IMG/VR virus record: IMGVR_UViG_3300037483_001170
Coordinates: 1 to 64,000 of that record
DNA length: 64,000 nucleotides
Direction: 5' to 3' (one strand)
DNA from: a virus
Below, piece after piece: positions 8,371-57,973 of this stretch; the first letter of the stretch is position 1, and each line of letters starts with the position of its first letter. The translations under genes were made by a program, and so were the position numbers. Below the pieces are notes generated by a model that worked only from the letters and a program-made list of their open reading frames with translations, did no database searches and was not told the origin of the DNA.

Positions 8371-8440
8371 TTGACAGTCTACGCGGCGGCGCTAAGCTCC
8401 ATCCTGAGACCGGCCAACAAGCTGGTCCGAAGGAGACGGC
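8371..8440 (+). promoter_or_regulatory. Promoter + leader hairpin + SD (P1)
   Basis: TTGACA-16-TAAGCT; GACCGGC-CAACAA-GCTGGTC; AGGAG. Confidence 0.85.
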
Positions 8441-8983
8441 ATGGCGAGCGAAAACGTGGTGATCCGACAGGCGGAGCGGGTTGGCGAGCTTGATGCGGTG
8501 GAGCCCGCAAGCGCGCTCCGCTGCGGCCGCTGCGTTGGCGGTGTCACCGTGCACGACGACGACGACGATCGGCACGTGACGGACGTCTGCTACCACTGCG
8601 GTGGCACTGGCTTCGTCGACGAGGAGACCGCGTTCCACGACGAGCTGCGCCGCCTCGCTGGCTACTACGCCTTTCGCGCGGCTCACGAGTACCGGCGGGT
8701 CTGCGACGAGGACCCCGACGGCGAGGACTTCGCCTTCCACGCCGCCGAGAACATGATGACGGCACACGACGCCCTGACCGAGATCACACGGTCGTACGAG
8801 GACAAGTTCGTCGCACAGCTGCTCGCACTTCCGTACGAGATGCAGAAGGTACTCGTCGCGTGGGAGGCGGAGTTCACCGCGTGGGCGGCGGGCCAGCTTC
8901 GGGAGCAGCTGCACGCAAAGAAAGCCGCCGACAAGGCGACAGCGGTCGCGCTCGCCAACAAGGCGCCGCGAGAGGAGTGGTGA
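8441..8983 (+). CDS. Hypothetical protein (CxxCxGxG Zn finger)
   Basis: First gene after P1, with SD. Confidence 0.8.
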   Translation: MASENVVIRQAERVGELDAVEPASALRCGRCVGGVTVHDDDDDRHVTDVCYHCGGTGFVDEETAFHDELRRLAGYYAFRAAHEYRRVCDEDPDGEDFAFHAAENMMTAHDALTEITRSYEDKFVAQLLALPYEMQKVLVAWEAEFTAWAAGQLREQLHAKKAADKATAVALANKAPREEW

Positions 8984-8988
8984 GCGCC

Positions 8989-9327
8989 ATGGCACAGGCG
9001 AAGGTGTTCCACGCGCGTCTGACAGAGGGGGGGCGCGTGTACGACCCACGCACGGATGGCCCCTGGCCGCTCGACGACGAGCACTACACGCTTGTCGCCG
9101 AGGTCGAGATCCCGGACGACGCGACTGAAGCAGAAGCGTGCGAGTTCGCGTTCGATCGGACGAATACGGTCCACCAAGCCTGGTGGCACAACGAAGAGGT
9201 CCGGGCCGCGGAACACGACGCGTATGGGATCGCGCCGCGCTCCACGAGCGTCGGCGACATCGTCGTACTAGTCGGCGGCGGCTCGTTCCGAGTCGAAGGC
9301 ACTGGCTGGACGGAGGTGCCACGGTGA
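8989..9327 (+). CDS. YodL-like protein
   Basis: RSTSVGDIVVL...GW motif; SD GAGGAG. Confidence 0.5.
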   Translation: MAQAKVFHARLTEGGRVYDPRTDGPWPLDDEHYTLVAEVEIPDDATEAEACEFAFDRTNTVHQAWWHNEEVRAAEHDAYGIAPRSTSVGDIVVLVGGGSFRVEGTGWTEVPR

Positions 9328-9740
9328 AGTTCATCGTGCAGAGGAAGATCCTTCGTCGCGGCCGCAGGGGCGGCGGCTACGAGTGGGTCGCCGTGAGCGA
9401 GCACGCTTCACGGCAAGAGGCCATCGAGGCGCGAGCAGAGCAGCCAACCAACAGCGGTCTACGCATTGTTCCGTTCGGCCTCACGATCACGAAGCGTGTG
9501 GCGACCGTCGAAGGGCGCGGCATCTGGATCGATGCGAATGTGGCACTCGACGGGAAGCTCTACTCCGTGAAAGGCATCGTCTATCCGCCACACGGCGTGG
9601 TTGCGCATCACGTCACGTTGGTCACCAACGACCAAGACTCGTCGCGTCAGTCGTCGCAGACAACGAAGCGACAGATCGAAGCGCTGCTCGCCAAGGAGTT
9701 CGAGCTGAAGACGATGGCGGTTTCCGAGGACGACCTGTAA
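9324..9740 (+). CDS. Hypothetical protein
   Basis: GGAGG SD; GTGA overlap. Confidence 0.7.
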   Translation: MKFIVQRKILRRGRRGGGYEWVAVSEHASRQEAIEARAEQPTNSGLRIVPFGLTITKRVATVEGRGIWIDANVALDGKLYSVKGIVYPPHGVVAHHVTLVTNDQDSSRQSSQTTKRQIEALLAKEFELKTMAVSEDDL

Positions 9741-9742
9741 CC

Positions 9743-10027
9743 ATGAGGCCCGTCAAACGCCCGATGCCCAAGGTCAGGCGCCAAGCCAGCACGATGATCG
9801 ATGGCCGCACCGATGCGCGCCACCTCGATGGCGCTCGCATGGAGTACACGCATCGGCAGTGCGGCCGCACGTACGTCATCGATCACAGCAAGAAGCAGCC
9901 CGGCCAGAAGCGCCCGTGGACCGAGGCAGCGGCCAAGTTCTACGCGAAATACTGGTCAGGTTCTCCGCAGTCCGGCGGCTGTATCGCGGTGTGCCCGCTG
10001 TGCGTGAAAGACGGGCGGCGACGATGA
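9743..10027 (+). CDS. Hypothetical protein
   Basis: Coupled ORF. Confidence 0.65.
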   Translation: MRPVKRPMPKVRRQASTMIDGRTDARHLDGARMEYTHRQCGRTYVIDHSKKQPGQKRPWTEAAAKFYAKYWSGSPQSGGCIAVCPLCVKDGRRR

Positions 10028-10446
10028 CGGTGAGCAAGTTCCCGTCACCGAATGCCTGCCCGATTCGCGAGCGCACCGGCGACGGCCGCCCGGTCGGTCG
10101 CTGCTGGTACCACTGCCCAGGCGATGTCTGCCCGCGGCACGGCGACGTGAGCGGACCGCTGACCGAGTACCGGGCAACCGGGCGTCTCACCGACGAAAAC
10201 GATCTCCCGCAGCGCATGAAGGGTGAAACGATGACGATGACGCCCCGCAAGCTGGAACCGGCCGATCCGCACACGAAGCGGAACGTGCTCCGCTGGTTCA
10301 AGACCATCCCAGACCTGGAGAGGGTCGAAATCCTACGCACCCTGACGAAGGAGCTGGGCGGCCGGCTGCTCGAACCGGACGTGCTGGAAGAGCTGGGCCA
10401 CCTCGGCGACGACGTCGCAGACACGATCGAACGACGGCAGACGTGA
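10024..10446 (+). CDS. Hypothetical protein
   Basis: ATGA overlap. Confidence 0.65.
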   Translation: MTVSKFPSPNACPIRERTGDGRPVGRCWYHCPGDVCPRHGDVSGPLTEYRATGRLTDENDLPQRMKGETMTMTPRKLEPADPHTKRNVLRWFKTIPDLERVEILRTLTKELGGRLLEPDVLEELGHLGDDVADTIERRQT

Positions 10447-10483
10447 GTCGGACACCGCCGCGACCGGTCGCTACGTTCGCCGC

Positions 10484-10555
10484 TTGACAGCACGCGCAGC
10501 ATAGCTACTATCTACCCGTGAGCCGGCAAACACGCTGGCCCGAGGAGAGCTGACC
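10484..10555 (+). promoter_or_regulatory. Promoter + leader hairpin + SD (P2)
   Basis: TTGACA-16-TACTAT; GCCGGC-AAACAC-GCTGGC; GAGGAG. Confidence 0.85.
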
Positions 10556-11473
10556 ATGTTCGAGAAGACCGCCCCCGTGACTGGAAGCTGGACCAACATC
10601 ATCTCCGCCATCCAGGCGATGGTCGTCGCCGGCCTCTGTCGCGTCGAGACCTGCGACTACAGCGGCGAGCCGTCCGTGCAGATCGTACTCGGCGACGACT
10701 CCGAGGTCCGTGCGTACTACGCGCGGTGCCTGGTCGAGCGCGAGAAGTACCGCGCGCTCGGCGACTTCCGCGGCGCCGATCGCGTGCTCTGCGACTACCA
10801 GGTCCGCGGTGGCACCGTCGGCGAGCGCCCGTACACGCTCAGCACGAACATCTACGGCTGGGCCATGGGCAGTCACCTGCTCTCGAACCTCGGTGGCGGC
10901 AAGTTCGCGATCACCAACCGTGGCGCGACGCTGGAGCAGTGCATCGTCGAGGGCTGCGAGCTGGCGCGCGTCAAGGGCACGACGCTGACCTTCGGCGCGC
11001 TGGGCGACACGCTCGGTGACGCGGTGGCGCTCGTGCGGCTTGCTGGCGGAACCGAAGAGCAGGTCGCCATCGTACTCGCTGGCCCGGCTCGGAAGGCTGC
11101 GCGCGCCGCGGAGAACGCGGCACGCCAGGCCGAGTACGCCGCGCGCCAGAAGGAGCTGGAGGCGGCGCGCGTGACGTGCCTGACGGTCATGGAGGCCGTC
11201 CGCGCTCCGTACCTCACGGGATGGGCCAAGTCGTGTCGCGTGGAGAGCGCCATGATGGGTACCGCGGTGGGCTTCACGCTCCGGGGCAAGACCCACAACC
11301 CGAGCATCACGTGCCAGATTCACGCGGGCGGCTACGTCGTTCGCCGTACCGACTTCGACGGCGTCCGCAAGCACGTCACGATCGTCGGCGAGGGCACGGG
11401 GCTGACCGTCGAGGCCATCTCGAACGCGCTGCGCGAGGCGTGGCAGACGATGAGCGCGGAGCGGGCGTCGTGA
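10556..11473 (+). CDS. Hypothetical protein
   Basis: 305-aa ORF after P2. Confidence 0.8.
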   Translation: MFEKTAPVTGSWTNIISAIQAMVVAGLCRVETCDYSGEPSVQIVLGDDSEVRAYYARCLVEREKYRALGDFRGADRVLCDYQVRGGTVGERPYTLSTNIYGWAMGSHLLSNLGGGKFAITNRGATLEQCIVEGCELARVKGTTLTFGALGDTLGDAVALVRLAGGTEEQVAIVLAGPARKAARAAENAARQAEYAARQKELEAARVTCLTVMEAVRAPYLTGWAKSCRVESAMMGTAVGFTLRGKTHNPSITCQIHAGGYVVRRTDFDGVRKHVTIVGEGTGLTVEAISNALREAWQTMSAERAS

Positions 11474-12574: not shown

Positions 12575-13127
12575 CATGGCGTTCGGCGGCGATGGCATCG
12601 GCATCCTCGACGAAGGCCTCTGCGGACCCATCACGTCGCTCGGCGAGCGCTGCGCTACGCTGCTGCGCCTGCTTGACCAGGACGAGGCGCTGGAAGCAGG
12701 CGCCTACGGGTCGGACGACGAACGCGGCTACGTCGAGGCAGCCCTACACGAGATCGCGCACGTGGTCGTTCTGCGACGGGGCATCCGCGCTGCTCTCCGG
12801 CGACCGCCCGTCAACCAGTCCGTCGGCGAGATCGTGCCGCAGTTTCCAGGATGGCGAACCCTGGCGGACGAGCCGCTCGTCCGCCGCGTCACAGGCATCG
12901 CCAACGAGCACGAGATCGAGACCATCGCGGTAGAGGTGATCGCCGCAGCGCGCGCCGGTACGCCGCTGATGGCACACGACATCGCCGTGTTCGCCGTCGA
13001 TGGCGAGAACGTCCGAGACCTGGGCAACGCGGACGCGGTCACCAAGCTCATCCACGCCGCCATGAAAGAACCGCGCGTCCGCCGCTGGGGCCGCGGCCTC
13101 GGCGACTACCTGACGCGCGGCGCTTGA
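12567..13127 (+). CDS. Putative HExxH metallopeptidase-like protein
   Basis: ALHEIAH plus downstream EHE. Confidence 0.5.
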   Translation: MTSMAFGGDGIGILDEGLCGPITSLGERCATLLRLLDQDEALEAGAYGSDDERGYVEAALHEIAHVVVLRRGIRAALRRPPVNQSVGEIVPQFPGWRTLADEPLVRRVTGIANEHEIETIAVEVIAAARAGTPLMAHDIAVFAVDGENVRDLGNADAVTKLIHAAMKEPRVRRWGRGLGDYLTRGA

Positions 13128-13194
13128 CAGTGCGCGGCCGATGGATACACTGCCAAGCAGAGCCTGCCGCACATGGCGGGCCGGGGAGATCGAG
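13124..13194 (+). promoter_or_regulatory. Promoter + leader hairpin + SD (P3)
   Basis: TTGACA-16-TACACT; GCCTGCC-GCACAT-GGCGGGC; GGGGAG. Confidence 0.8.
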
Positions 13195-13968
13195 ATGACC
13201 GAAACGCTCGCACAGCAGATCAGCCGTAAGCTCGCGGACAAGATCGTCGAAGAGAACGCCGCGCTCGGCGAGTTCTCGTTCCGCCTCGGGCCCGCGAAGC
13301 TGCCGGGTCAGGATGCGCACGTGATCGCGCAGGTCGCGTACATGCGTACCGGCAACCCGCTGCCGCACTTCTCGATCGTGGGCCGCGTCTATCGCACGAA
13401 TGATGTTGTCGCGGTTCGCGGCGTGCTGTCGTCGGACGCGTCGCCGATCAAGGTCGACGGTCGCACGTTCTGGCTCAGCGAGTGTGGTCAGTGTACCGAG
13501 GCTATCGTCGCCGCGTTCCCTGTGCTCGCACCGTTCATGCAGTGGCACCTGTGTGCGGCCGATGGTCCGCTGCACTACGTGTCGAACGCCGTCTACTGGG
13601 CGCAGGCCATCTACGGCGTCTCCGAGTACCCGCAGCGCGGCGGTTCCGCCAACGCGAACGACTGCTTCAACGGAACGGTCGTTCTCGGCGCGGCGACCAG
13701 CAAGGACCATCCGGACAAGATGCCGCACGTCGGCCTCGACTACCTAGAGACTGACGCGGGCGTTCAGCGTGCGCACATCCGGCGCCACATCACTGCGTGG
13801 TGCGAGGAGCGCCGCGGACGGCTGCTCTTCGCCTTCCAGCGCGCCATGGCCGCGGTCATGGAGCTGGATCCGAACCGCGAGGGGCTGCCCGGCGATCTGG
13901 ACTCCAACCCGCACGACGTCGCCGATGCGGCGACGCGACGCGCGATGCGGCTGGAGCGGAAGTCGTGA
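13195..13968 (+). CDS. Hypothetical protein
   Basis: Start set from the P3 SD (MTETLAQ). Confidence 0.75.
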   Translation: MTETLAQQISRKLADKIVEENAALGEFSFRLGPAKLPGQDAHVIAQVAYMRTGNPLPHFSIVGRVYRTNDVVAVRGVLSSDASPIKVDGRTFWLSECGQCTEAIVAAFPVLAPFMQWHLCAADGPLHYVSNAVYWAQAIYGVSEYPQRGGSANANDCFNGTVVLGAATSKDHPDKMPHVGLDYLETDAGVQRAHIRRHITAWCEERRGRLLFAFQRAMAAVMELDPNREGLPGDLDSNPHDVADAATRRAMRLERKS

Positions 13969-14576: not shown

Positions 14577-14950
14577 CACGCTGGAAGGAAGGAAACGCGG
14601 TTCCGATTCGCATCACCGGTATCGTGCGCTCGGTGAGCCACGACGGTACGCGCATCGGCATCGAGTGGCCTGAGCCGCTTATGGGTCAGACGGTCCACGC
14701 TGCACACGGAAAGAGCCCGGGAGGCGCCACGCACGCAAGCATCGACTCGGCCGTCGATGTCGCGGAGCCGTCCATGGAGCTGCTCAAGCACGTGGTGAAC
14801 GTCGCGATCCGTGACCGAGAAGCGGTCGAGGCGGCCGCGCAAACGCGATCATCGGCGCCGCCGAGCACACAAGAGCGCGCGAAGGTCGCGCTCGATCGCC
14901 GGATCGTCATCGTCATCGGCGATGCGCTGGCCGAATGGAGCAGGCGATGA
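14573..14950 (+). CDS. Hypothetical protein
   Basis: ATGA overlaps at both ends. Confidence 0.65.
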   Translation: MTRWKEGNAVPIRITGIVRSVSHDGTRIGIEWPEPLMGQTVHAAHGKSPGGATHASIDSAVDVAEPSMELLKHVVNVAIRDREAVEAAAQTRSSAPPSTQERAKVALDRRIVIVIGDALAEWSRR

Positions 14951-16443
14951 AGCTGCGCGCGAGGTCGGCGGACGAGACCACGGAGATCGTCCACTTCAGC
15001 ATCACGGGCGACGCGTACACGACCATCGCGCGTGACTTCCTCCTGTCCGAGCGGCCCGCACAGGCGTACCGCCTGCTCGCTGACTATCTGAAGGGCGGCG
15101 CTCCAGGCGAGGCTCAGACGATCGCGCCTGAAGTTCTCGACGGCAAGCGCAAGCTCACCGGCGACTCTACGAAGGGCATCGGCCACGCCGTCGATCGCGG
15201 CTCGGCCGGATACCGCAAGACGCTGCGCTACATCTACGCGGGCCGCATTCGAATCGGCAACACGTGGTGGCGGCCGAGCGCACGCGTCGCCACGTTCGGG
15301 CCCGATGACGCGCGCTGGGCAAGTCGTGAATATGGCTGCAAGGGCTGCCCGGTAGACGCCGAAGGAAAGCGCGCGTGGGGCAAGCTCCGTGTCCAGTACT
15401 ACGTGGAGGGTACGCCCAACAAGCTGGTCGCTGTGCGAGCCGACCGTACCAAGAACGAGTCGCCGTTCATCATCTTCGAGCCCTGCGGGGAACCGCCGTT
15501 CTGGTGGCAGGAGCACCGCGACTCCGATGCCGCGCTCGCTGACTTCCTGGCCGCCGGTCGTCGACTGGGCGAGATCCGCGCGGAGCAGGCCGACAGCGAC
15601 GAGCGCGAGGGCATGCGCGGCCGAGAGGCGCCGTTCGCTTCCCTCCGTGCCCAGCGCATCGCGCGCGAGGAAGCAGAGGCTGAGCGAGAGTTCGAAGAAG
15701 AAGAGGATCGTGCCCGTGAGGCCGCGTACCGCGCGCGGCTCGTCGAGCTTCGCGAGCAGGTACTCGCCCAAGCCAACGGCGACATGGTTGAGCTGGAACT
15801 GACCGACGACGACCTCAGGTCATGGCGCGAGACGGAAGCGCTGTACGACGACGACGGCGACCCGAACGCCCCGAAGCGACCGAAGTTCAAGGCGGGCGAC
15901 AAGTTCCAAGTGCCACGTGCGCCCTTCATGAACTGGGCACTTCGCCGAACCTCTCTCGCTCATCTGGCGCCGAAGTGGGAGATGGTGTCCGACCCGGACA
16001 TGAAGATGTTCAACGACGACCGGTATCACACCGACTGGATGCTCGGAGCGGGCGTGGGCCTCACGTCGTCGTTCAGCTCTCCGATCATCCAAGCTGCACA
16101 CCGCAAGGGCAGCGAGATTCAAGAGGAAGTCGGTGGCTTCCAGGCCCACGTGCTCGTCGGTGGCCCGAGCTTCGACGGCACAGTCGGCACGGTCGATACC
16201 GCGGGCGCGATCATGGTGCTGAAAGATCTCCGCAACTCGCCAGCCAACAACAAGGCGATGGCCAACGCTCGCGCCATCATCACCGAGAACGGTGGCGAGC
16301 TGGCCCACCTCGCGATCGTCGGCCGCGAGACCGGCATCCCCGTCCTGCGCGTCCCCGATGCGCTCACGCGCTTCCCGGTTGGCTGCCGGCTGCGCGTGCA
16401 ACCCGACGTCGGCAAGATCGAAGTCGCCATCCGCTTGTGCTGA
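14947..16443 (+). CDS. Protein with C-terminal PEP-utilising swivelling phosphohistidine domain
   Basis: AIITENGGELAHLAIVGRETGIPV motif. Confidence 0.85.
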   Translation: MKLRARSADETTEIVHFSITGDAYTTIARDFLLSERPAQAYRLLADYLKGGAPGEAQTIAPEVLDGKRKLTGDSTKGIGHAVDRGSAGYRKTLRYIYAGRIRIGNTWWRPSARVATFGPDDARWASREYGCKGCPVDAEGKRAWGKLRVQYYVEGTPNKLVAVRADRTKNESPFIIFEPCGEPPFWWQEHRDSDAALADFLAAGRRLGEIRAEQADSDEREGMRGREAPFASLRAQRIAREEAEAEREFEEEEDRAREAAYRARLVELREQVLAQANGDMVELELTDDDLRSWRETEALYDDDGDPNAPKRPKFKAGDKFQVPRAPFMNWALRRTSLAHLAPKWEMVSDPDMKMFNDDRYHTDWMLGAGVGLTSSFSSPIIQAAHRKGSEIQEEVGGFQAHVLVGGPSFDGTVGTVDTAGAIMVLKDLRNSPANNKAMANARAIITENGGELAHLAIVGRETGIPVLRVPDALTRFPVGCRLRVQPDVGKIEVAIRLC

Positions 16444-16449
16444 CGCATC

Positions 16450-17283: not shown

Positions 17284-17307
17284 ATACGGCGATTTCACAC
17301 TAAGCGC

Positions 17308-17381
17308 TTGACAATGGTCGCGCAATGGCTAGAGTGCCGACTGAGCCGGCAAACACGCTGGCCGAGGATGGGCAGGACGCG
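17308..17381 (+). promoter_or_regulatory. Promoter + leader hairpin (P4)
   Basis: TTGACA-16-TAGAGT; GCCGGC-AAACAC-GCTGGC. Confidence 0.85.
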
Positions 17382-17717
17382 ATGATCAAGAGCACCAAGA
17401 ACGCCAAGGCCCCCTCGGAGAAGGGCGTGCGGCCCTCGCCGCTGTCCGCGGCGGAGGAAGAGGCATCCAGCCGCGCGATGCGCATCCGCAGCATCCAGAG
17501 CAGCCACCGTCGCGCGATCGAGGAGGTCACGAACCAGGTGCACTGGCTGCGTCAGCAGTGCGACGATGCCGAGCGGCACCTCGATACCGCCCACACTCCG
17601 GGCAACATCACCGCGACTGCGGGGCGGCTCGATGCTGCGCGCGAGAAGGCGCACGTCCTGCGTCAGACACTCGAAGTGCTCGGCGCGTACGTGGAGCCGG
17701 AGGGCAAGAGCCGATGA
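17382..17717 (+). CDS. Hypothetical protein
   Basis: Start set from P4. Confidence 0.7.
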   Translation: MIKSTKNAKAPSEKGVRPSPLSAAEEEASSRAMRIRSIQSSHRRAIEEVTNQVHWLRQQCDDAERHLDTAHTPGNITATAGRLDAAREKAHVLRQTLEVLGAYVEPEGKSR

Positions 17718-17914: not shown

Positions 17915-17915
17915 G

Positions 17916-18472: not shown

Positions 18473-18476
18473 GACG

Positions 18477-24157: not shown

Positions 24158-24187
24158 CGAAACAGTGCGCGCGGACATGCGCGCCGG

Positions 24188-25132
24188 ATGGAGGGTAGCG
24201 AAATGGGTGGACAGCTGTTCGAGGGTACGCGTCGTGATGTGTTCTATCTCCTGCCGGAGGAGGTCGTCATCATCGGCCTCGACACCAAGGACGGGCGAGA
24301 GCATCCGCTCTGGGATGCGCGCATCCATCTTCCGGTCACCGACGCGGACGTCGCGGACGTGCTGACTCACGGCATCCTGGAGCCGGGACTCATCCGCAAG
24401 GAGAACCTGGAGAAGGGCGTGTCGCGCGCGGTCGTCCTCAACGGCCGCCAGCGCGTGAAGTGGGCGCGCGCGGCGAACGCTCGTCTGCGCGAGCAGCTCG
24501 ACGGTGCGGAACTGGAGAAGAAGCTGATTCGGGTGCCGTTCCTGCCGAAGCAGGCCGTCGGCGATGCCGCGGCGCAGATGCGAATGGGCGTCGTCGCGAA
24601 CAGCTTCAAGCCCAGCGACTACATGATGAAGGCCGAGGAGGCCTCTCGCATGCACGAGCGCGGCATCTCGCTGAAGGACATCGCCGCCGACTTCCGTGTG
24701 TCCGAGCAGGCGGTGTCGCAGTGGCTTCAGGTGCTGAACCTCGGCACCAAGGCGCAGGAAGCCGTTCGCTCCGGTGTCTGGAAACCCAGCACCGCCATCC
24801 AGTACTCCGACCTGTCGGAGGAGAAGCAGAACGAGATCCTCGCCGAGATGGAGCGCCTCGGCGTCTCCATCTCGTCGACCGAGGCGAAGGCTCAGCGGGC
24901 GAAGCGCGCGCGCAACGGTGGAAACGGCAACGGCAACGGGCACGAGGTGCGCCGGCCGATGAGCGTCGGCATCGTCCGCAAGGTCGTCGCGCACGAGCGC
25001 TTCGACGAGCTGGAGCCCGAGGTCAAGGCGGTTCTGAAGTGCATCGCAGGTGAGCCGAACCAGGATCGGCGCGTGAAGCTGCTCCGCGGCATCCTGAAGG
25101 ACGTCGGCTGGATCGAGAAAGACGCGGACTGA
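24188..25132 (+). CDS. ParB/Srx-like protein with HTH
   Basis: GILEP...VLNGRQR box; IAADFRVSEQAVSQWL HTH. Confidence 0.75.
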   Translation: MEGSEMGGQLFEGTRRDVFYLLPEEVVIIGLDTKDGREHPLWDARIHLPVTDADVADVLTHGILEPGLIRKENLEKGVSRAVVLNGRQRVKWARAANARLREQLDGAELEKKLIRVPFLPKQAVGDAAAQMRMGVVANSFKPSDYMMKAEEASRMHERGISLKDIAADFRVSEQAVSQWLQVLNLGTKAQEAVRSGVWKPSTAIQYSDLSEEKQNEILAEMERLGVSISSTEAKAQRAKRARNGGNGNGNGHEVRRPMSVGIVRKVVAHERFDELEPEVKAVLKCIAGEPNQDRRVKLLRGILKDVGWIEKDAD

Positions 25133-26263: not shown

Positions 26264-29200
26264 ATGGCTGCACCCAGGAAGAAGAAGGCTCCGAAGCCCG
26301 AGCCTCAGAAGCTCGTCGACATGCTCACGACCGCCCAGCGCGCGATCGTGCAGCATCGCGAAGGGCCGCTGCTCGCAGGCGCGGTCGCTGGGTCCGGCAA
26401 AAGTTCCTGCATGGTCGAGCGCGTCGCGCACCTCGTGCAACACGGAGTTCTACTCTCGCGCATCTGTATCGTCGCCTTCAACGTAAGCGCAGCAGAAGAC
26501 CTCAACCGGAAGCTCAAGAAGCGGCTGAAGGGCGTTCCCGGCGTTGACCTCAGCGCCCATCCCGCTCGCACGCTGCACAGTCTTGCGCTCATGGTCTTCA
26601 AGAGCGACGACGAGAACGAGGCCACGCGCGTCGGCAACGTCGAACCGTTCTGGACAAAGGCGATCCGCGAAGCACACGCGGCGCTCGGCATCACCGACGC
26701 AGACGTCGATCTTGTGAAGGAGTTCTCGTCGAAGGTCCGCAACGACTACTTGCCGTCGCCGGACTTCGTCGGAGACTTCGACATCCGAAAGCTCCACTCC
26801 GACCTTGTCGCAGCAGCGGACGCCACCATCGAAAGCAAGAAGGCGCCGAAGCTCAGCCTCGCGCAGCTGCTCGAAGTGTTCTGCAAGGCTGATCGCGCGC
26901 GCCGCGCGGGCCGCGTCACCGGCACCGACGGATTCGCGTTCGCGACCTTCGACGACATCCTGTGGGAAGCCGCTCGCATCATGGAGCACAACGCTGGCCT
27001 CCGGGACGTCTGGCAGCGACGCTACGACCACGTCATCGTCGACGAGGCGCAGGACTTGTGCGAGGCGCAGTGGCAGCTGATCGAGCTGATCGCGGCCGGC
27101 CATCGCAACCTCGTAGTGGTCGGCGACGTGGCGCAGTGTGTAGCTGCCGGAACCCTCGTCAGCACGCCAACTGATGCACGACGTATCGAAGACCTAGCCT
27201 CTGGCGACGTCATTCTTGCTTTCCGCAACGGCCACAACCGGCCGCAACGCGTTGACAAGAGCTGGTCTACGGGCCTCCGCAGGTGCGTCACGATAAACAC
27301 CAAAAGCGGCCACCGCCTGACCATGTCCGTCGATCATCGTCTCTGGACGACGACGCCAGATATCAGACGACCTGGCGAAATGCTCGTGTACATGATGTAT
27401 CGCTCCGGATTTGGATTCCGTATAGGCATAACCAATCGTGCCATGAACTCGGCGCAAAACCAATGGGGCAACAGACTCAACAGCGAGGGAGCAGAGCGAC
27501 TTTGGATCGTAGCGTACGGTCAGGATCGCGAAGACGCCCTGTTCCGCGAGACGTCTCTTAGTCTGACCTACGCCATACCGACCGCGCTCTTCAACGCCGC
27601 ACACCGTGGTCTTAACCAAGAACGCGTAGACGCTATTTTTGCCGCCTTTGGCGAGAATGGCCGACGACTTTTGGCCGACCTAGACCTCTCGTTCGATTAT
27701 CCGCACTGGATGTCTGGCTCAACAAGTGGTTTGCGTACTGCCAAGATTGTCAGTCGCTCCACGCGACGAGTCGTTCGCGTCACCTCTCATGGGCCCAAGG
27801 GCACTGGCGTTCGCCTGGAGTGGAGTGGCGGACGCGAGGTAGACATCAAAGGACTCGGCGTCAACATCCGCCCTGCAAAGAAGGGCGGCAACGTCATTCT
27901 GAAGCTATTCGCATCGCACCGTGCTGCCACTGCCTTTGCTGCCCAGCTAGCAGAGCGCGCCGGAGCTTCTGTTATCGATGTATTGTCGTGTTCCGATGCA
28001 CTAACCAGTGCAGGGCTCCATGGCGGCAGCGCCAAAACACGGAACCTGCGCCTCTGTACGGCCGGTAGCTTGTACGTCGGCATGGCAGTGCCGGTCCAAA
28101 CCAACGAAGGATACCGTATAGAGGAAATCGTCGATCTTGAACGTGTCACGGCTGAGTGTTTCGATCTTAGCGTAAACGATGCCGAAACCTTCTACGGTAA
28201 CGGCATTTTGACGCACAACTGTCTGTACAGCTTCCGCGGAGCACGGCCCGAACACGTCATCTCGTTCGCAGACCGCTGGGGCTCCACGGCGATCTACATG
28301 GAGGAGAACTTCCGCTCTGGCGGCGACATCCTCGCGTGCGGAAACCGCGTGCTCGATGCGATGGATGGCGATTCCAAGCTGCCGATGCACTTGAAGCCCA
28401 CGCGCGGCGTCCCTGGCTTCGTCGGTCGCATGGTGTCTGACACTCCGATAACTGAGGCCTCTGCGCTCGCACTCGCTTGCGCTGCACAGAAACAGCGCGG
28501 ACGCGAGTGGCGCGACATGGCCATCCTGATCCGGCTCAACGCGCAGTCGAAGGACATCGAGCTGGAGTTCTTCAGGAAGAAGGTGCCGCTGCGGATGATC
28601 TCCGGCACGAGCTTCTTCAGCCTCAAGGAGGCCAAGACGATGCTCGGGTACTTCCGGCTCATCCTTGGCAAGGCGAACGAGGACGATCTCTACATCGCGA
28701 TCACGAGCCCCGGCCGATACCTCGGCAAGGCCTTCGTCGAAAGCGTGGCTCGCGTCGACAACAGCGTCGGCGACTGGGTCGAGCGCATCCCTCGCTGCGA
28801 TGCGTACGCCGGCCGCGCGGCAGACACGGCGCGACAGTTCGTCGAGCAGATCAAGGAGTGGCGCTCTTCGATGCTCCGCGGCGCCACGCCGTCGCAGCTG
28901 CTGACTCGCATCATCGAGCAGACGCAGTACACGCAGTGGCACGTCAAGGAGCAGGCCGAGGGCAACGAGTCCAGTACCTTCGTGGACACGATGGCTCGCA
29001 TCCGCTCGTTTACTGAGGAGTTCGAGTCCGTCGAGTCCATGCTGACGATGGTCGACGAGATGCGAGCACAGCAGCGTGCGGCGGCGCAGAGCCGCAACGC
29101 CGTCGCGGTCATTACCGTACACGCATGCAAAGGGCTCGAATGGCCCGTCACGTTCATCCCGGGGCTCACGAGCCAGCACTGGCCGGTTCCGTGGGGCACT

Positions 29201-31692: not shown

Positions 31693-31738
31693 GCCCCCGA
31701 CGCTACCACGGCGCTCGCCGCTGTTATACACTTCCGGC

Positions 31739-49450: not shown

Positions 49451-49744
49451 TTACCTGCCGTCCATCACACGGCGCCACTTGTCGAGTACGCGCTCGATCG
49501 CGTCTGGATCAGGCGTTGCCTGCTGGTCTGCCCAGGCCTCCAGCGCCTCCTGGAACACGTCCTGAAGCGCGAGCAGCGTATCGATACGCTCGCCGTTGAC
49601 CTTAGAGATCACGCGATCGATCGCTTCCAGCGCCCACTCTGCGTTGGCCGAACGATCCGCCTTACGAACGGTTTCCGCCGCCTCATCGTCGAGAAGAGCC
49701 GCACGCACACGCGCCCTGTACTGCCCCCGAGTCGCTGCGCTCAC
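49451..49744 (-). CDS. Hypothetical protein
   Basis: GTGA overlap. Confidence 0.6.
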   Translation of the reverse strand: MSAATRGQYRARVRAALLDDEAAETVRKADRSANAEWALEAIDRVISKVNGERIDTLLALQDVFQEALEAWADQQATPDPDAIERVLDKWRRVMDGR

Positions 49745-50037
49745 GAAAGCCCCCACGTCGCCTCACGCGCCGAGACCGCCGAGTCGTGGATCACCTGCTG
49801 CGAGAGGCCATCGAGACCCGCCTCGAACATCGCGCGCAGCTCCGGATGATCACGCAACGCATCGGCCCGCGCGTGGCTCGGCCCTTCGAACAAAAGGGCG
49901 CAGATCTCACGCGCGACCTCCGCACGACGCTGATCGTCGCTGAGTCGGCGAAAACCGACGCCCCATCGCGTCGCCGCGCGAATCGCGCACTTGCGGCCAA
50001 CCGTTCGAAGCAGGTCGTGCGTATGTTCGGTGAGCAT
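49741..50037 (-). CDS. Hypothetical protein
   Basis: Start set from the P5 SD. Confidence 0.65.
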   Translation of the reverse strand: MLTEHTHDLLRTVGRKCAIRAATRWGVGFRRLSDDQRRAEVAREICALLFEGPSHARADALRDHPELRAMFEAGLDGLSQQVIHDSAVSAREATWGLS

Positions 50038-50111
50038 CTGAACGTTCCTTCCGGCCGGCATGGTCGCCAGCTCAACGAGCGTGATTCTAGTCAGCCATCG
50101 GTCGCTGTCAA
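50038..50111 (-). promoter_or_regulatory. Promoter + leader hairpin + SD (P5)
   Basis: TTGACA-16-TAGAAT; GCTGGC-GACCAT-GCCGGC; AAGGA. Confidence 0.8.
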
Positions 50112-50145
50112 GCGCCTAGCGCAACAAAGCGCAGCAACGTCCGAC

Positions 50146-50481
50146 CTAGCGCCAGAAATAGATCGTCGAGTAGTTGCCCCCGGTCTTGCTCGCGAAGTTC
50201 GCCGCCGCCAGGATCTCCGCCGCGTCGCAGCACTTTCCGACGTCGCGCGTGGCGATGATGTCAAGCAGCACGCGCTTGGCCGAGTCGTGCAGCCAGCCCC
50301 CGTCGTCGAAGAGCAGGCTGGCAGCGGGTGACCGCGGAACATCGCGGTACGGGTCGCCGAGCGTTGGGCAGTTGCCTCGCGCGTCGAACAGCTCCGCCAA
50401 CCTCTTCGCGTCGTCCACGGCCTTCTCCTCAGCTTCGTGCTCGGCCCACTCGCGATGATGCCGCTTCTCTCGGCGGCTCAC
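50146..50481 (-). CDS. Hypothetical protein
   Basis: GTGA overlap. Confidence 0.6.
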   Translation of the reverse strand: MSRREKRHHREWAEHEAEEKAVDDAKRLAELFDARGNCPTLGDPYRDVPRSPAASLLFDDGGWLHDSAKRVLLDIIATRDVGKCCDAAEILAAANFASKTGGNYSTIYFWR

Positions 50482-50777
50482 GACTTCGCCGCCCGCTCGC
50501 CCATCAGCGGCATCACCGCCGCAGCGAAGCCCGCGTCCGTGTGCGTCTCGCGCTTCCGGATGCAGTCGGCTTCCGCTTGCTCCAGCGTGTCGCCGCCGCC
50601 GAACGTCTCGTCGCGGCGTCCGTGGGGACCGCGCGCCTTCGGCCTCAGCGTACGAACGCTGACCGTCCACGACGAACCGTCGCGCATGACGCCGAAGCGA
50701 ACCTCTACGTCCTCCGCGTTGCAGCCGAACGCAGCGGCCACGCGCTTGACGGTGGCGATGAACTTCTGATCCTTCAT
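50478..50777 (-). CDS. Hypothetical protein
   Basis: First gene after P6. Confidence 0.7.
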   Translation of the reverse strand: MKDQKFIATVKRVAAAFGCNAEDVEVRFGVMRDGSSWTVSVRTLRPKARGPHGRRDETFGGGDTLEQAEADCIRKRETHTDAGFAAAVMPLMGERAAKS

Positions 50778-50846
50778 GACGCTCTCCCGAGCCAGCTTGT
50801 TGGCCGGCTTCCCAGCTCACACTAGCCATCGCCAGAACGGTGTCAA
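50778..50846 (-). promoter_or_regulatory. Promoter + leader hairpin + SD (P6)
   Basis: TTGACA-16-TAGTGT; GCCGGC-CAACAA-GCTGGC; GGGAG. Confidence 0.85.
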
Positions 50847-50847
50847 G

Positions 50848-51372
50848 CTACTTACGCTCTTCTGGTTTTCCGCAGAACAGGCAGTAGTCGTGACACGTGT
50901 CTTCGTCATCGTCGTAGACGCACTTCGGAAGGGGGTTCTCCGCAGCCGGGCACTCGTGATAGCCCACGAAAGGGTTCTCGATCGATGCAGTCAGCTTCTC
51001 GACCGCCCGTGCGCCCAGGAGTGCGTACTGCTTGCTGCGCGCCTCACGGAGCCTCTCGATCTGAGCATCGAGCTTCGCGATGCGCGCGAGAAGCGCCGCA
51101 GCCTCTGCCGACGGGACACGACGAACAGCCGGCTCGCCGCGTCGCACACGCCGACCCGACAGCATCTTGCCGATCTTCTTGGCCAGCTCAGCGTGCAGAT
51201 CCCGATCGAGCACATCGCCAAGGCTGAGGCCGCCCCGCCCAAACGTGCCACTCGTGCGCGTCGTCCACCGACCGTCCGACCTCACCTGCACCTTGACGAG
51301 CGCGGCGTCGTCATCGCAGCGCGACACGAGAGCCCGGTACTTCACACCATCGTGCTGAACCTGCGAAATCAT
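50848..51372 (-). CDS. Hypothetical protein with C-terminal Cys-rich domain
   Basis: Start set from the P7 SD; CLFCGKPEERK end. Confidence 0.7.
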   Translation of the reverse strand: MISQVQHDGVKYRALVSRCDDDAALVKVQVRSDGRWTTRTSGTFGRGGLSLGDVLDRDLHAELAKKIGKMLSGRRVRRGEPAVRRVPSAEAAALLARIAKLDAQIERLREARSKQYALLGARAVEKLTASIENPFVGYHECPAAENPLPKCVYDDDEDTCHDYCLFCGKPEERK

Positions 51373-51447
51373 GGTTTCCGCTCTCCTCTGAGCCAGCTTG
51401 TTGGCCGGCTTCAGCCAAGACAATAACACCTCCTCTCCGCGCGTCAA
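51373..51447 (-). promoter_or_regulatory. Promoter + leader hairpin + SD (P7)
   Basis: TTGACG-16-TATTGT; GCCGGC-CAACAA-GCTGGC; GAGGAG. Confidence 0.85.
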
Positions 51448-51556
51448 GCGTCAGACCACAACAGATCGCAGCACAGCCAAGACAGTATCCATGCCAGCGG
51501 CCGTCCACCTCATCGCCAATTTCATTACTAGCGGACGAGGCCGGCGCCTGGAGGGA

Positions 51557-51767
51557 GATTCCAGTAGTAGCCTGTAGGACAACGCGAAACCATTGGTTTT
51601 TTCTGCCATCGCCAGTTTCCGTGCCAGCCGGACAGGCCGAGCCCCAGCCCCTTCGGTGCTACCCGTGGTCGTCTGAAAACGGCGGGGCGTAGACGGGCGC
51701 TGGCGGGCGGCAATCCACGTGGTCACGTATGGTTATTCCAGAAGGCTCGATATACCTCTCTCTATGC
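51557..51767. repeat. 211-bp non-coding direct repeat, copy B
   Basis: Colinear with 8120-8330. Confidence 0.95.
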
Positions 51768-51796
51768 ACGAAACAGCATCTTGTTGGACCCCGCGC

Positions 51797-51869
51797 TTGA
51801 CACCGGTCTAACCATCGCTAGAGTCGTGGGGTGAGCCAGCAAACACGCTGGCCGGACGGAAAGAGATAG
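51797..51869 (+). promoter_or_regulatory. Promoter + leader hairpin (P8)
   Basis: TTGACA-16-TAGAGT; GCCAGC-AAACAC-GCTGGC. Confidence 0.85.
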
Positions 51870-52295
51870 ATGGCACAGTTCACCACGATCCAGTTCCGCA
51901 ACCGCTTGGGCGGCATCGAGTATCCGGGCTCGCGCGAGGAAGCGACCTTCCGCGGACCGGACCAGCACCGTGATGCCAGCGACGTGCTCGACCGGCTCGT
52001 TGCGTCTGACCCCGAGACGTGGGCAGATGCTGGTCTGACGCTCGTGACGCACGAGATCGACGATGCGGCGATCGCGACCGGCGCCGACGCACCGCTGCAT
52101 CCCGGGCACGCGGTCCTTCGCGTTCTGATCCCCGACACCGCCGCGAGACGCGCCTTCGTACAGAAGGCGTGTTCGGTTGCCGAGTGGTACCCGCCGCACC
52201 TCATCGCTGCCGTGGCCGAAGCGAACGGCCGCAAGCCGGTGAACGTGAGCCCCGAAGACGCGCGATCGGTGCGCGCCTTCATCGAAAGCATCTGA
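51870..52295 (+). CDS. Hypothetical protein
   Basis: First gene after P8. Confidence 0.75.
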   Translation: MAQFTTIQFRNRLGGIEYPGSREEATFRGPDQHRDASDVLDRLVASDPETWADAGLTLVTHEIDDAAIATGADAPLHPGHAVLRVLIPDTAARRAFVQKACSVAEWYPPHLIAAVAEANGRKPVNVSPEDARSVRAFIESI

Positions 52296-52305
52296 GGAGA
52301 GTCTC

Positions 52306-52629: not shown

Positions 52630-52634
52630 CGCCC

Positions 52635-53254: not shown

Positions 53255-53264
53255 CGGGAACCGC

Positions 53265-53335
53265 TTGACAGCGCTTCGGTCGTAGCTAGAGTGTTCTTCG
53301 TGAGTCGCCCAACACGGCGGCCGGAGGGTGAGCGG
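53265..53335 (+). promoter_or_regulatory. Promoter + leader hairpin + SD (P9)
   Basis: TTGACA-16-TAGAGT; GTCGCC-CAACAC-GGCGGC; GGAGG. Confidence 0.85.
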
Positions 53336-53626
53336 ATGGCGAAGACGACGCACGAACAGGACATCGCGTGGCTCTGCGTCCAGGATGCCATGAAAGTGCT
53401 CGGAACGGGCTGGAACCACGTCAGCGACGACGTTCGCTGGGGTCTGGTCGCGTCGGAGATTCTCAGCGTCGTCGTCGGACAGTCGGCGCTGACCGACGAC
53501 GAGTACGCCACTGACAAGCGCCTCGGCGGCGTCGCGCTCTACACGCGAGAGCTGTGGCGCGTCGGCATGGCCATCAAGGACAACGGCTGGAAGCGTCCGT
53601 GGGCGGTCAAGGCGGTGAAGTCGTGA
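53336..53626 (+). CDS. Hypothetical protein
   Basis: Start set from P9. Confidence 0.7.
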   Translation: MAKTTHEQDIAWLCVQDAMKVLGTGWNHVSDDVRWGLVASEILSVVVGQSALTDDEYATDKRLGGVALYTRELWRVGMAIKDNGWKRPWAVKAVKS

Positions 53627-54573: not shown

Positions 54574-54583
54574 GGAGCGCGCG

Positions 54584-54796: not shown

Positions 54797-54999
54797 CCCA
54801 GAGCGCGAACAAGGCGCACCCCAAGCGCGTCGTCCTGACCGCGGCCGCGCTCGGCGCGATGAACTCCGCAGTCTCCGCTGCGCTTTCCGGCGAAGAGGGC
54901 GAAGGCGACTGCGCCGACGTCACGTTTGCCGACCTCGAACGTGCGCAGGACTGGATTCACGCCGAATACGCCAGGCGCGCGAAGAGGCGGCGCGTCTGA
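54793..54999 (+). CDS. Small hypothetical protein
   Basis: ATGA overlap. Confidence 0.6.
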   Translation: MTQSANKAHPKRVVLTAAALGAMNSAVSAALSGEEGEGDCADVTFADLERAQDWIHAEYARRAKRRRV

Positions 55000-55027
55000 C
55001 AGCGCTGCGCTTTGTTGCGTCCGCTGC

Positions 55028-55096
55028 TTGACAGCGTACTGGCACATCGCTAGGATGGATCGAGTGAGCCGGCAAACACGCTGGCCGAGGAGACGG
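55028..55096 (+). promoter_or_regulatory. Promoter + leader hairpin + SD (P10)
   Basis: TTGACA-17-TAGGAT; GCCGGC-AAACAC-GCTGGC; GAGGAG. Confidence 0.85.
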
Positions 55097-55444
55097 ATGA
55101 TGAGCAAGAACCGACGCGTGGTGGTCTACGACTTCTCCTGGGACGACCAGGGTGATCTGGGCCTGTGGGTCTTCGACGGGCGCGAGGAAGTGCTCGTGGA
55201 GGCCATGGAGCGCATCTCGACGGAGGTCGAAACGCGCTACAACCGTCTCGGAGAGCCCAGCGGCGAGTACACGCTCGTCTCGGGCAAGCTACCGGAGGGC
55301 GCTGGCGTGCTGCTCCCGGGCGCGGCGAAGCCCGTCTTCGGCGTGGCCGCGGAGAGCGCGTGGGATCGCCTCGTGCGCGCTTCGCATGAGGGCGCGATGG
55401 TCGATAACGGTCGCGGCGTCGGCGGCATCGAGAGGGCGTCGTGA
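55097..55444 (+). CDS. Hypothetical protein
   Basis: Start set from P10. Confidence 0.7.
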   Translation: MMSKNRRVVVYDFSWDDQGDLGLWVFDGREEVLVEAMERISTEVETRYNRLGEPSGEYTLVSGKLPEGAGVLLPGAAKPVFGVAAESAWDRLVRASHEGAMVDNGRGVGGIERAS

Positions 55445-56045: not shown

Positions 56046-56410
56046 TGGACAAGACGCCGAAGCCGATCGCGGCCGATCCGTATCTCAGCACCGATCGGAC
56101 CGTACGCCGCGCGCTCATCCTCGACCAGGCGCGCGGCACGACGCTGGATCTGATCTCGGGGACCGCGAAGTGGGTCCGCAGCAGATTTCGAGATCTGGAA
56201 CAGGATCTCCGCGAGATAGCCACCAGCGGCGCCGTCGATGCGAGCGATCTCATCCGCCAGCTGGCCTGCCTGCAAGGGCTGACGCATCAGCTCCACGCAC
56301 AGAACACGGCGATGCTCGTGCTCTACGATCTGGCCACCGAGTGGCCGGCGGACGTCGAAGTCACGGTGCCTGCGTACACGGACTTCGTCCCCACGGAGAA
56401 GTCCACTTGA
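56045..56410 (+). CDS. Hypothetical protein
   Basis: TGATG coupling. Confidence 0.65.
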   Translation: MDKTPKPIAADPYLSTDRTVRRALILDQARGTTLDLISGTAKWVRSRFRDLEQDLREIATSGAVDASDLIRQLACLQGLTHQLHAQNTAMLVLYDLATEWPADVEVTVPAYTDFVPTEKST

Positions 56411-56820
56411 GCGACTTCTACGAGAAGCGGGCCGCCGAGTACGAGAAGCGGTGGCAGGACGAGATCGCCGCCGGCAAGATCGTGCGCGCGGAGCGCGACG
56501 AGGCTCGACGCCTGCTGCGGCTCGCCGAGGCGACGCGCATGGAGGTCGACCGTGTTCACGCCGAGGCCGGCGCGCCGTACGGAACGCCAGCCGACACGCG
56601 CGAGCTGGTGAAGCGTGTCATCGCATCGTGCGACGGCGACGGGCACACTTCGGTTCCGCAGACGTTCTGGGTGCTCAAGCACCAGAGCGGCCTGTACATG
56701 AGGGACGGGCAAGGAGGCCCCGTCAGCAAGCCGCTCGATGCTGCGGCGTTTCACGTCAAGCCCGTCGCTCCCAGCGACTACAAGGTCATGCGCGTCTGCG
56801 TCTACGAAGAGGAGGACTGA
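56407..56820 (+). CDS. Hypothetical protein
   Basis: TTGA overlap; SD. Confidence 0.6.
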   Translation: MSDFYEKRAAEYEKRWQDEIAAGKIVRAERDEARRLLRLAEATRMEVDRVHAEAGAPYGTPADTRELVKRVIASCDGDGHTSVPQTFWVLKHQSGLYMRDGQGGPVSKPLDAAAFHVKPVAPSDYKVMRVCVYEEED

Positions 56821-56967
56821 CGTGCACTTCTGCACCGACGAAGCGCTCGCGCTCGCTGCGGCCGTGCCGATCATCGGCTTCGCGCTCCGTATGGGGCTCA
56901 CGAGCCTGATCGGGCTCTACCGCCAGGCACGCACGCGGGTCACGCAGTTCCTAAACGGGAGAGACTG

Positions 56968-57642
56968 ATGAGCTACACCATCAATCACTGGATCCTCATC
57001 AACGGCGGCATCGAGGAGGTTGCCTGGGCACACACCCTGGCCACGCAGATCTTCCCGCCCGAGCAGGTCTCGGCCGTCCTACGCGCGGCCATCAACTACG
57101 GAGGCTACCTCAGCGTCGCACCAGACGGCAGCAAGGAGGGCTGGGACGTCTCGGACGATTTCGATCGGCGCCGAGCCGAGTTCATGGCCTCACTGCTCGT
57201 CGGCCGGCTGCTACATGACCATGTCATGTCGTGGACCGTCTTCGGGCTCGGTGAAGACGGCGAGGGGCCATCGATCATGGAGTACCACGACCCCCTGTTC
57301 TACGCGCTGCTCGAAGGCGAGCCCGTTCACGAGTACCACAACCTGACGCTCGCCCACGCGCTCACGCCTCTCGACATCCTCGTACCCGGACGGGAAAACG
57401 AGCGATGGCGCGGGTGCGTCAAGGCGCGGGTGGCCGCGATGTCAGACGCGGCCACAGGTCTAGTCGAGATCGTCTCGGCCGAAACAATGGTGCTAGCCAA
57501 GCTGCTCGATGCTCCCGACAAGTACGGAGCCATCGGCACGCCCGACAAGCTCAGCACGGGTGCGCGCGCGTTCTACGACGAACTCCTCGCCGATGCGCAT
57601 CACGCCTTTCCCGGCGCTCACGCGAGCGTCCGATTCCGATGA
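56968..57642 (+). CDS. Hypothetical protein
   Basis: APDGSKEGW..SD motif; TGATG coupling. Confidence 0.75.
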   Translation: MSYTINHWILINGGIEEVAWAHTLATQIFPPEQVSAVLRAAINYGGYLSVAPDGSKEGWDVSDDFDRRRAEFMASLLVGRLLHDHVMSWTVFGLGEDGEGPSIMEYHDPLFYALLEGEPVHEYHNLTLAHALTPLDILVPGRENERWRGCVKARVAAMSDAATGLVEIVSAETMVLAKLLDAPDKYGAIGTPDKLSTGARAFYDELLADAHHAFPGAHASVRFR

Positions 57643-57872
57643 CCGCACGCTCCACCACCGTCGTCCACGCCGGCCGGACGTGGCTCGTAGAGCTTCCGCC
57701 GGTCACGAGCCGGCACGAGTGCCCCCGCGTCGACGGGACGCCGGCTGACGACCCCGAGGACGTCCGGATGTTCGCGTACAAGCTCGGCGACCGCTGGCAC
57801 TCGCCGGGCTACACGCACCCGGGGCTCGCTGCGGCGTTCAACACCGCGATCGGCGCGCTCGAAAGCAGCTGA
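57639..57872 (+). CDS. Small hypothetical protein
   Basis: ATGA overlap. Confidence 0.6.
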   Translation: MTARSTTVVHAGRTWLVELPPVTSRHECPRVDGTPADDPEDVRMFAYKLGDRWHSPGYTHPGLAAAFNTAIGALESS

Positions 57873-57899
57873 CTGTCAGACAATCTTGCGCCCTGCCAC

Positions 57900-57973
57900 T
57901 TGCACTCGGTCGGTGGCGTGCTACATTGATTTCCGTTGAGCCCGCCGACAAGCGGGACGAGGAGCGAGAGACC
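57900..57973 (+). promoter_or_regulatory. Promoter + leader hairpin + SD (P11)
   Basis: TTGCAC-16-TACATT; CCCGC-CGACAA-GCGGG; GAGGAG; TGTCAGACA upstream at 57874. Confidence 0.7.

Follow-up and report, generated by a model that had tools for sequence, protein, structure and literature searches.

Promoter modules in the window

The first 64 kb of the IMG/VR viral contig IMGVR_UViG_3300037483_001170 (hereafter G000), which form the window analysed here (64,000 nucleotides), carry eleven copies of a compact module in which a sigma70-type promoter is followed by a small hairpin, a Shine-Dalgarno (SD) sequence and the start codon of a gene. The contig measures 106,780 bp at 65% GC, is classed as 'linear' and has an estimated completeness of 47% (CheckV); the sequencing runs that hold it are DNA runs only, from sediment and soil metagenomes. 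Phage-type genes in the window encode an SNF2 helicase, an intein-split UvrD helicase, TnpB, sugar-modifying enzymes, an AAA ATPase and a ParB-like protein, while NAMPT, NadM-Nudix, an RNA ligase, an integrase and a virion structural protein are encoded past it. No tRNAs were found in the window.

An original prediction had placed the eleven modules on the two strands, and every one of them is there, in position and orientation, with the stem and loop ascribed to it. The promoter part consists of CTTGACA (TTGCAC in one copy and TTGACG in another), a spacer of 16 nt (17 in one copy) and TAnnnT. After a further 9-13 nt comes a stem of 5-7 bp enclosing a loop of exactly 6 nt, which reads AAACAC in four copies, CAACAA in three, and CAACAC, CGACAA, GCACAT and GACCAT in one each. 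A GGAG-type SD begins 1-5 nt after the stem (1-2 nt in ten copies), and 6-14 nt beyond it stands an ATG. The copies are given below; G001 and L116 are two further contigs that hold modules, introduced in the following paragraphs.

Module 1, 8370..8443 (+): hairpin 8408-8427, GACCGGC/caacaa/GCTGGTC; gene 8441-8983
Module 2, 10483..10558 (+): hairpin 10522-10539, GCCGGC/aaacac/GCTGGC; gene 10556-11473; orthologous modules at G001 100996 (-) and L116 1092 (-)
Module 3, 13123..13197 (+): hairpin 13162-13181, GCCTGCC/gcacat/GGCGGGC; gene 13195-13968; orthologous copy at G001 98601 (-), with a bulged stem
Module 4, 17307..17384 (+): hairpin 17345-17362; heads a long rightward operon from 17382
Module 5, 50035..50112 (-): hairpin 50054-50071, GCTGGC/gaccat/GCCGGC; gene 49741-50037; orthologue at G001 66106 (+)
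Module 6, 50775..50847 (-): hairpin 50790-50809, AGCCGGC/caacaa/GCTGGCT; gene 50478-50777
Module 7, 51370..51448 (-): hairpin 51391-51410; gene 50848-51372
Module 8, 51796..51872 (+): hairpin 51835-51852, GCCAGC/aaacac/GCTGGC; gene 51870-52295
Module 9, 53264..53338 (+): hairpin 53304-53321, GTCGCC/caacac/GGCGGC; gene 53336-53626
Module 10, 55027..55099 (+): hairpin 55068-55085; gene 55097-55444; preceded by an upstream element at 54987-55018
Module 11, 57899..57976 (+): variant -35 box TTGCAC; hairpin 57941-57956, CCCGC/cgacaa/GCGGG; gene 57974-58270; orthologue at G001 60902 (-), with TTGCGC and CCGCC/GGCGG

The cassettes stand in tandem on one strand, 1.5-4 kb apart, and their hairpins are of uniform stability (-10.4 +/- 1.2 kcal/mol). 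As had been proposed, these hairpins are not intrinsic terminators: no U-tract follows, and the 10 nt past the stem hold 0.34 T on average and 2 at most.

The combined module pattern gives 7 matches, compared with 0.00 in 100 shuffles. Over the whole 106,780-bp contig the promoter pattern TTGACN-N15-18-TAnnnT occurs at 11 sites, where Markov shuffles yield about 1.5, and 10 of these 11 strict sigma70-type sites carry the hairpin. A covariance model of the 26-nt hairpin recovered exactly the set that the original prediction had grouped together (E 8.5e-6 to 3e-3), the next match being no better than E 5.5. Rfam produced no match at its gathering thresholds over the whole window, and none at E <= 1 in the interval 49.7-58.3 kb.

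Homologues of the protein encoded behind module 2 (10556-11473) are present on other contigs, including the IMG/VR contig 3300033233_000001 (G001), which has 297,749 bp, a GC content of 65% and a completeness of ~90%. G000 is collinear with G001 over ~12-105 kb in inverted orientation, and 66 of the 127 called G000 genes have a homologue there, at roughly 30-85% amino-acid identity and mostly at 50-80%. This collinearity assigns the window to a fragment of a related phage of ~300 kb. Megablast found no relative among cultured phages, tblastn with the structural protein and the SNF2 helicase gave only distant matches (30-34% identity), and other single-protein searches for relatives returned nothing, or G001 again.

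G001 itself has 12 modules in four clusters, some of them ahead of genes orthologous to the module genes of G000. A degenerate module pattern applied to metagenomes revealed genuine modules on four more contigs, L054, L055, L116 (four copies) and L139: among its 120 matches 10 were fully paired, of which four belonged to G001, four were new genuine modules and two were low-GC chance matches. The sample of the element thus consists of two large genomes plus four fragments. Run over 185,579 prokaryote genomes, the pattern had 47 matches, and the two that were fully paired, one of them a Caulobacter contig treated as chance, are about what chance provides; exact-core scans of IMG/VR met only chance matches within coding sequence. 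Given the chance level in prokaryote genomes, the element is private to a rare phage lineage and no loan from a host, and the hairpin has apparently not been described so far. To call it genome-wide, as was originally done, goes too far, since all copies in G000 lie within 8.3-58 kb, none is found in 64-107 kb, and G001 also has sigma70-like promoters that lack it. It is thus one class of host-type promoters, gathered in few clusters, that bears the hairpin. The best non-member match of the hairpin model in G001 (21 bits) lies at 197794-197819 (-) and reads GCCGCC/gagccc/GGCGGC; found 34 nt past a TTGACA-18-TATCAT promoter and with no SD after it, it is possibly a diverged relative of the element.

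The stem is kept for RNA pairing

The stem is kept by selection for pairing of the sense-strand RNA. The covariation claimed for the eleven copies holds, with 89.6% of the alignment cells paired, four of the seven pairs changing on both sides, and a score that none of 500 shuffles reaches. A loop-centred alignment of 29 copies from six contigs extends this result: no copy has a break in the five inner pairs, changes on both sides are seen in six of the seven pairs (20 cells), and again 0 of 500 shuffles attain the score, with the reservation that the copies are related by descent and that shuffle statistics overstate their independence. When one partner strand is slid by 1-3 columns, pairing falls from 85% to 11-42%.

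The kind of mismatch that is tolerated shows at which level the pairing counts. Across the core 6 bp of the 29 copies, 148 pairs are Watson-Crick, 21 are G.U and none is A.C; the 5 others all occupy the outermost position. Several pair positions have such wobbles, as G.U and as U.G, and one G001 stem, GCUGGC/GCUGGC, closes only through two of them. A G.T mismatch on one DNA strand is an A.C mismatch on the other, so that a protein-binding palindrome or a cruciform should show both. The ratio of 21 to 0 therefore speaks for RNA pairing on the sense strand and not for a DNA palindrome. Orthologous modules tell the same story, as they hold their position while their stems differ by compensatory swaps: this is seen between the module at 50111 and G001 66106, and between the module at 10484 and its counterparts at G001 100996 and L116 1092. 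The module at 57900 (CCCGC/GCGGG) and G001 60902 (CCGCC/GGCGG) are separated by two compensatory pair swaps and share their odd -35 box (TTGCAC and TTGCGC). Together, the 29 copies, the wobble counts and the orthologue swaps bear out the structure-selected stem that the original prediction had put forward.

On this drifting stem sits a loop that hardly changes. There are 20 distinct stem variants among the 29 copies, and the loop has 6 nt in all of them. Its consensus is NNACAY, with C4 and A5 in 29 of 29 copies and A3 in 27; G is absent from position 6 and U from position 1. A C-G pair closes the loop in all copies except one, the helix is flanked by a 5' A and by a 3' C in 27 copies each, and the SD follows the stem at a distance of 1-3 nt in 26. 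An exposed, fixed loop on a drifting stem is as expected of an element that is read in trans. No pairing partner of the pseudoknot type was apparent for the loop within ~80 nt downstream, where 1 of 29 copies is complementary and 1.8 would be expected. An upstream TTGTTG was considered as partner of the CAACAA loops and rejected, as its occurrence among the copies does not follow the loop sequence.

Where would the transcript begin? In nearly all copies a purine, usually G and often preceded by a pyrimidine, stands 7-8 nt past the -10 box, and the usual sigma70 geometry places the transcript start at such a purine. On that geometry, the transcript would start with about 1-5 unpaired nucleotides before the stem. 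Ten copies have a 9-nt gap and hence a predicted 5' overhang of about 2 nt (G-A); in others it reaches 4-5 nt. Homologues of sigma70-family proteins and of the RNA polymerase beta subunit were not detected in G000 or G001, nor was a T7-type RNA polymerase, although this last blank is weak, as the control scored in no control genome. The promoters are thus presumably read by unmodified host polymerase. That would suit an early class, for which the host-type character of the promoters and the orphan status of the genes they drive are the only signs.

Gene context, upstream element and variant copies

The module-driven genes are small, and neither Pfam nor PHROG places them in a family; behind module 1, the first gene shows a weak Q-like PHROG match (E 4.5e-4). 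Homologues in G001 exist for only 3 of these 11, compared with 66 of 127 genes overall, and such poor conservation is the signature of a variable, orphan-rich region. For the module-driven protein that is conserved, neither solved structures nor a protein atlas provided a lead. The operon behind module 3 includes, at 14947-16443 (+), a 498-aa protein with the mobile domain of PEP-utilising enzymes (E 6e-10), which is unusual in a phage. Among the genes adjoining the modules, the best conserved encodes the SNF2-family helicase (5372-8059, minus strand), which has an N-terminal DUF6011 and shares 82% identity with its G001 counterpart.

In G000 as in G001, roughly one module copy in three has an upstream element that lies ~10 nt before the -35 box and consists of a GTCYGAC-containing hairpin followed by GCTGCG-CTTTGTTGCG. 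This element scores as terminator-like, so that the full cassette runs from terminator-like element through promoter and leader hairpin to SD. Terminator-like sites as a whole are not in excess (11, compared with 7.6 +/- 3.4 in shuffles). An example of the upstream element and two variant loci are as follows.

54987..55018 (+): upstream element, before module 10
61061..61134 (+): decayed-hairpin promoter with upstream element and TTGACA-17-CAGAAT, in which CCGGC AACTCG TTGAT is unpaired; precedes the AAA ATPase gene
24167..24205 (+): promoter-less look-alike, GCGCGC/ggacat/GCGCGC, with SD and the ATG of the ParB-like gene 24203-25132

The promoter-less locus deserves attention, as its hairpin and SD are identical at the orthologous G001 site despite diverged flanks. 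A unit of hairpin and SD that is conserved in the absence of a promoter argues for a role at the ribosome site and not only at the 5' end.

GTCYGAC/TGTCnGACA palindromes recur in the window at 54987-55018, 61024-61055 and other places, where they form the tip of the terminator-like upstream element of many modules. In G001, palindromes of the TGTCSGACA type are found at 157891, 169654 and 297245, within or beside the spacer of sigma70-like promoters without a leader hairpin. The palindromes suggest a second, operator-controlled class of promoters. Two of the modules, those at 8371 and 51797, are moreover preceded by the copies of a gap-free, non-coding direct repeat of ~214 bp (8120-8333 and 51557-51770; ~85% identity, 43,437 bp apart), each of which ends ~40 nt before the module, at a point of divergent transcription. 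A shared ACCTCTCTCTA stretch is also found ahead of several G001 modules. The repeat could be a regulatory region, or it could hold the gene for a small RNA or a small protein.

Three further features of the contig lie apart from the modules. The UvrD/REP-type helicase (26264-29407, plus strand; 1047 aa) has matches to Intein_splicing and Hint_2 between its N- and C-terminal helicase domains. TnpB (30559-32271, minus strand; 570 aa) combines OrfB_IS605 with a Cas12f1-like TNB domain; its best match in G001 reaches only 31% identity and is at a non-syntenic position, so that it looks like an independent insertion. Finally, an NAD salvage set (NAMPT and a NadM-Nudix-like protein) and an RNA ligase, at G000 70160-71560, 73247-74161 and 75327-76190, are all kept in G001.

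Possible roles of the leader hairpin

As a cassette, the module is closest to the promoter-early stem-loop (PeSL) cassettes of the T4-type phages RB49, phi1, PST and nt-1 (Arbiol et al. 2010, PMC2839356; Comeau et al. 2014, PMC4122927). Each of these brings together a stem-loop and a strong early promoter of sigma70 type with the SD and start codon (ATG) of an orphan gene; the cassettes are repeated in hyperplastic regions (PMC2839356, PMC4122927), where recombination between copies shuffles genes, a published precedent for the shuffling of cassettes (PMC2839356). Shuffling of this kind, which the original prediction had put forward for the modules, may take place here too and would fit the low share of module-driven genes with a homologue in G001. 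The present modules are likewise intergenic cassettes of ~75-100 bp, repeated in a large phage and built from predicted promoter, stem-loop, SD and small orphan gene; they too cluster in variable regions, and some carry a terminator-like element. The stem-loops themselves are another matter. Those of PeSL cassettes take five different positions relative to the promoter boxes, are typically GGGG...CCCC, have been shown to act as terminators or attenuators, and have no reported loop conservation, whereas the present ones have stems of the GCCGGC/GCUGGC type at a fixed place 9-14 nt past the -10 box, inside the predicted transcript, with a conserved NNACAY hexaloop, covarying stems biased towards G.U, and no U-tract. 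PeSL cassettes come from T4-type phages; no kinship of the present phage with that group is evident. The module is best called a variant form of the PeSL cassette, the closest described kind, in which the stem-loop has become a fixed RNA leader element. The literature on transcription in the jumbo phages PA5oct and 201phi2-1 offered nothing comparable.

What, then, might such a leader element do? The reading that we favour, tentatively, is that of a leader operator which is read through its loop by a putative factor and which would set how the orphan genes are translated or how stable their messages are. This view draws on the invariance of loop core and flanks, on the close SD and on the promoter-less internal copy. 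Host RNA polymerase would transcribe from the class of consensus sigma70-type promoters, with the hairpin as the cis-acting start of the 5' leader; these promoters would head cassettes of small orphan genes, probably serving early functions or host takeover, in a clade of uncultured phages of ~300 kb. The loop would be an address read in trans, most likely by an RNA-binding protein encoded by the phage or the host, and this factor, bound near the ribosome site, would switch translation, and hence stability, of the whole gene set together. The logic would be that of T4 RegA, gp43 and the MS2 coat protein, and the hairpin itself may in addition slow decay initiated at the 5' end. Phage translational operators include the T4 gp43 operator hairpin next to the SD, the T4 RegA sites and the coat-protein hairpins of MS2 and PP7. 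With these the present element shares a small hairpin, a sequence-specific loop and an adjoining ribosome-binding site, and RegA sets the example of one factor acting on many early messages; it differs from the T4, MS2 and PP7 operators in showing no sequence similarity to them and in lying at the predicted extreme 5' end behind a promoter, without an SD or AUG inside. With less confidence, we consider it possible that the NNACAY hairpin is a private RNA address tag, by which a dedicated phage protein switches the orphan set, be it in a shut-off of translation from early to middle phase or in sparing these messages from phage-induced mRNA destruction.

Several points weigh against a loop-read operator. 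No candidate for the reader protein was found among the module-driven genes, a screen that took in the lesser part of the two genomes. Some of the loop conservation could come from shared descent of the cassettes. Promoter-less hairpins are represented by a single locus, with a poor score in the hairpin model (E 5.5), and the predicted transcript start comes from promoter geometry. Spacing is equally constant on both sides of the hairpin, with standard deviations of 1.08 to the -10 box and 1.26 to the SD, and thus gives no preference to a role in translation over one at the promoter.

The main rival explanation dispenses with a reader altogether: the hairpin would be a plain 5'-terminal stabiliser and insulator that, a few nucleotides from the triphosphate end, hinders pyrophosphate removal by RppH-type enzymes and 5'-dependent attack by RNase E or RNase J and keeps the SD context uniform, its loop being kept by descent or folding. 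The 5' hairpin of the E. coli ompA leader and that of the T7 gene 10 leader are stabilisers of this kind, effective whatever their loop sequence, and they resemble the present element in that a stable hairpin a few nucleotides from the predicted 5' end is followed by an accessible SD. The uniform stability of the hairpins suits such a role, as does the predicted start 7-8 nt past the -10 box, which, where the gap is 9 nt (ten copies), would leave only about two nucleotides, G-A, before the stem. Fewer than 2 unpaired 5' nucleotides do not suffice for RppH or RNase E, both of which prefer at least 3, and RppH is blocked by a 5'-terminal stem-loop (PMC8833179). However, many copies are predicted to leave 4-5 free nucleotides, enough for both enzymes, and a stabiliser does not require a fixed loop, yet here the loop is always 6 nt long, with C4 and A5 invariant over 20 stem variants and six contigs, and its flanks are conserved too. 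The conserved promoter-less copy inside an operon is likewise unexpected of a stabiliser. We therefore doubt that stabilisation explains the element by itself; operator and stabiliser are compatible with each other. A further suggestion, that the hairpin is the site of a hairpin-specific endoribonuclease, comparable to Cas6/Csy4 or to T4 RegB at GGAG, would account for the conserved flanking A and C and the adjoining GGAG-type SD, and also for the promoter-less internal copy. Read-through RNAs of the tandem cassettes would carry internal hairpins, and the enzyme would trim these RNAs or inactivate early messages. This is improbable, as no nuclease candidate was found, and as each cassette has its own promoter, expression does not need processing.

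The original prediction had also offered a boxB/nut-like antitermination site, at which an N-like protein on the nascent hairpin would make RNA polymerase resistant to terminators in the operons, and here the defining features fail. In lambda and P22, the nut site consists of boxA and boxB and is bound by N, boxB being a stem of ~5 bp with a GNRA-like pentaloop. The resemblance lies in a small, promoter-proximal RNA hairpin on early-type transcripts with a purine- or A/C-rich loop, where CGACAA even recalls the P22 boxB loop GACAA, and in the terminator-like upstream elements between cassettes. The loop is, however, an NNACAY hexaloop; the ~1-5 nt before the stem and the SD directly after it leave no room for a boxA, and none is seen; terminator-like sites show no excess; and many copies, one per short cassette and each with its own promoter, make read-through unnecessary. 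No N-like family match exists among the module-driven genes in Pfam or PHROG, and the Q-like match behind module 1, which might be cited in favour, is weak, while Q works on DNA and sigma and not on such a hairpin. We consider antitermination highly improbable. Much the same holds for an element acting at the level of DNA, either a repressor operator palindrome at +3 to +20 or a PeSL-type terminator combined with recombination homology. The site does overlap the start region where repressors act, T4-type PeSL cassettes with the same list of parts do recombine (PMC2839356), and the module-driven genes are poorly conserved between the two phages. Against this, the half-sites change in sequence while their complementarity stays, the G.U bias is unexpected for double-stranded DNA, one stem pairs only by two wobbles, no U-tract is present and the loop is asymmetric; recombination at the modules may occur as a side effect. 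Least probable of all is a functionless hairpin that came along as passenger when a promoter cassette was recently duplicated. Paralogy and clustering of the cassettes are clear, but stems, flanks and the stretch between the boxes have diverged freely while pairing and loop core were kept across phages whose proteins are 50-80% identical. The contigs are thus not near-identical strains, and the copy at 61062, whose pairing is lost, shows what decay looks like.

Control of gene expression in large uncultured phages is almost unknown, and in this lineage a short RNA element under clear selection marks a whole class of promoters, beside the ribosome site of unrelated orphan genes. If the hairpin proved to be only a stabiliser, it would be a clean natural case of standardised 5' leaders and would extend the PeSL idea past T4-type phages. 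The compact cassette of terminator-like element, consensus promoter, leader hairpin and SD would also suit use as a natural insulated expression unit in high-GC hosts. If the loop is indeed read by a factor, the pair would be a new RNA-protein regulatory system and would open a way into the early-gene programme of giant phages from a lineage without cultured members.

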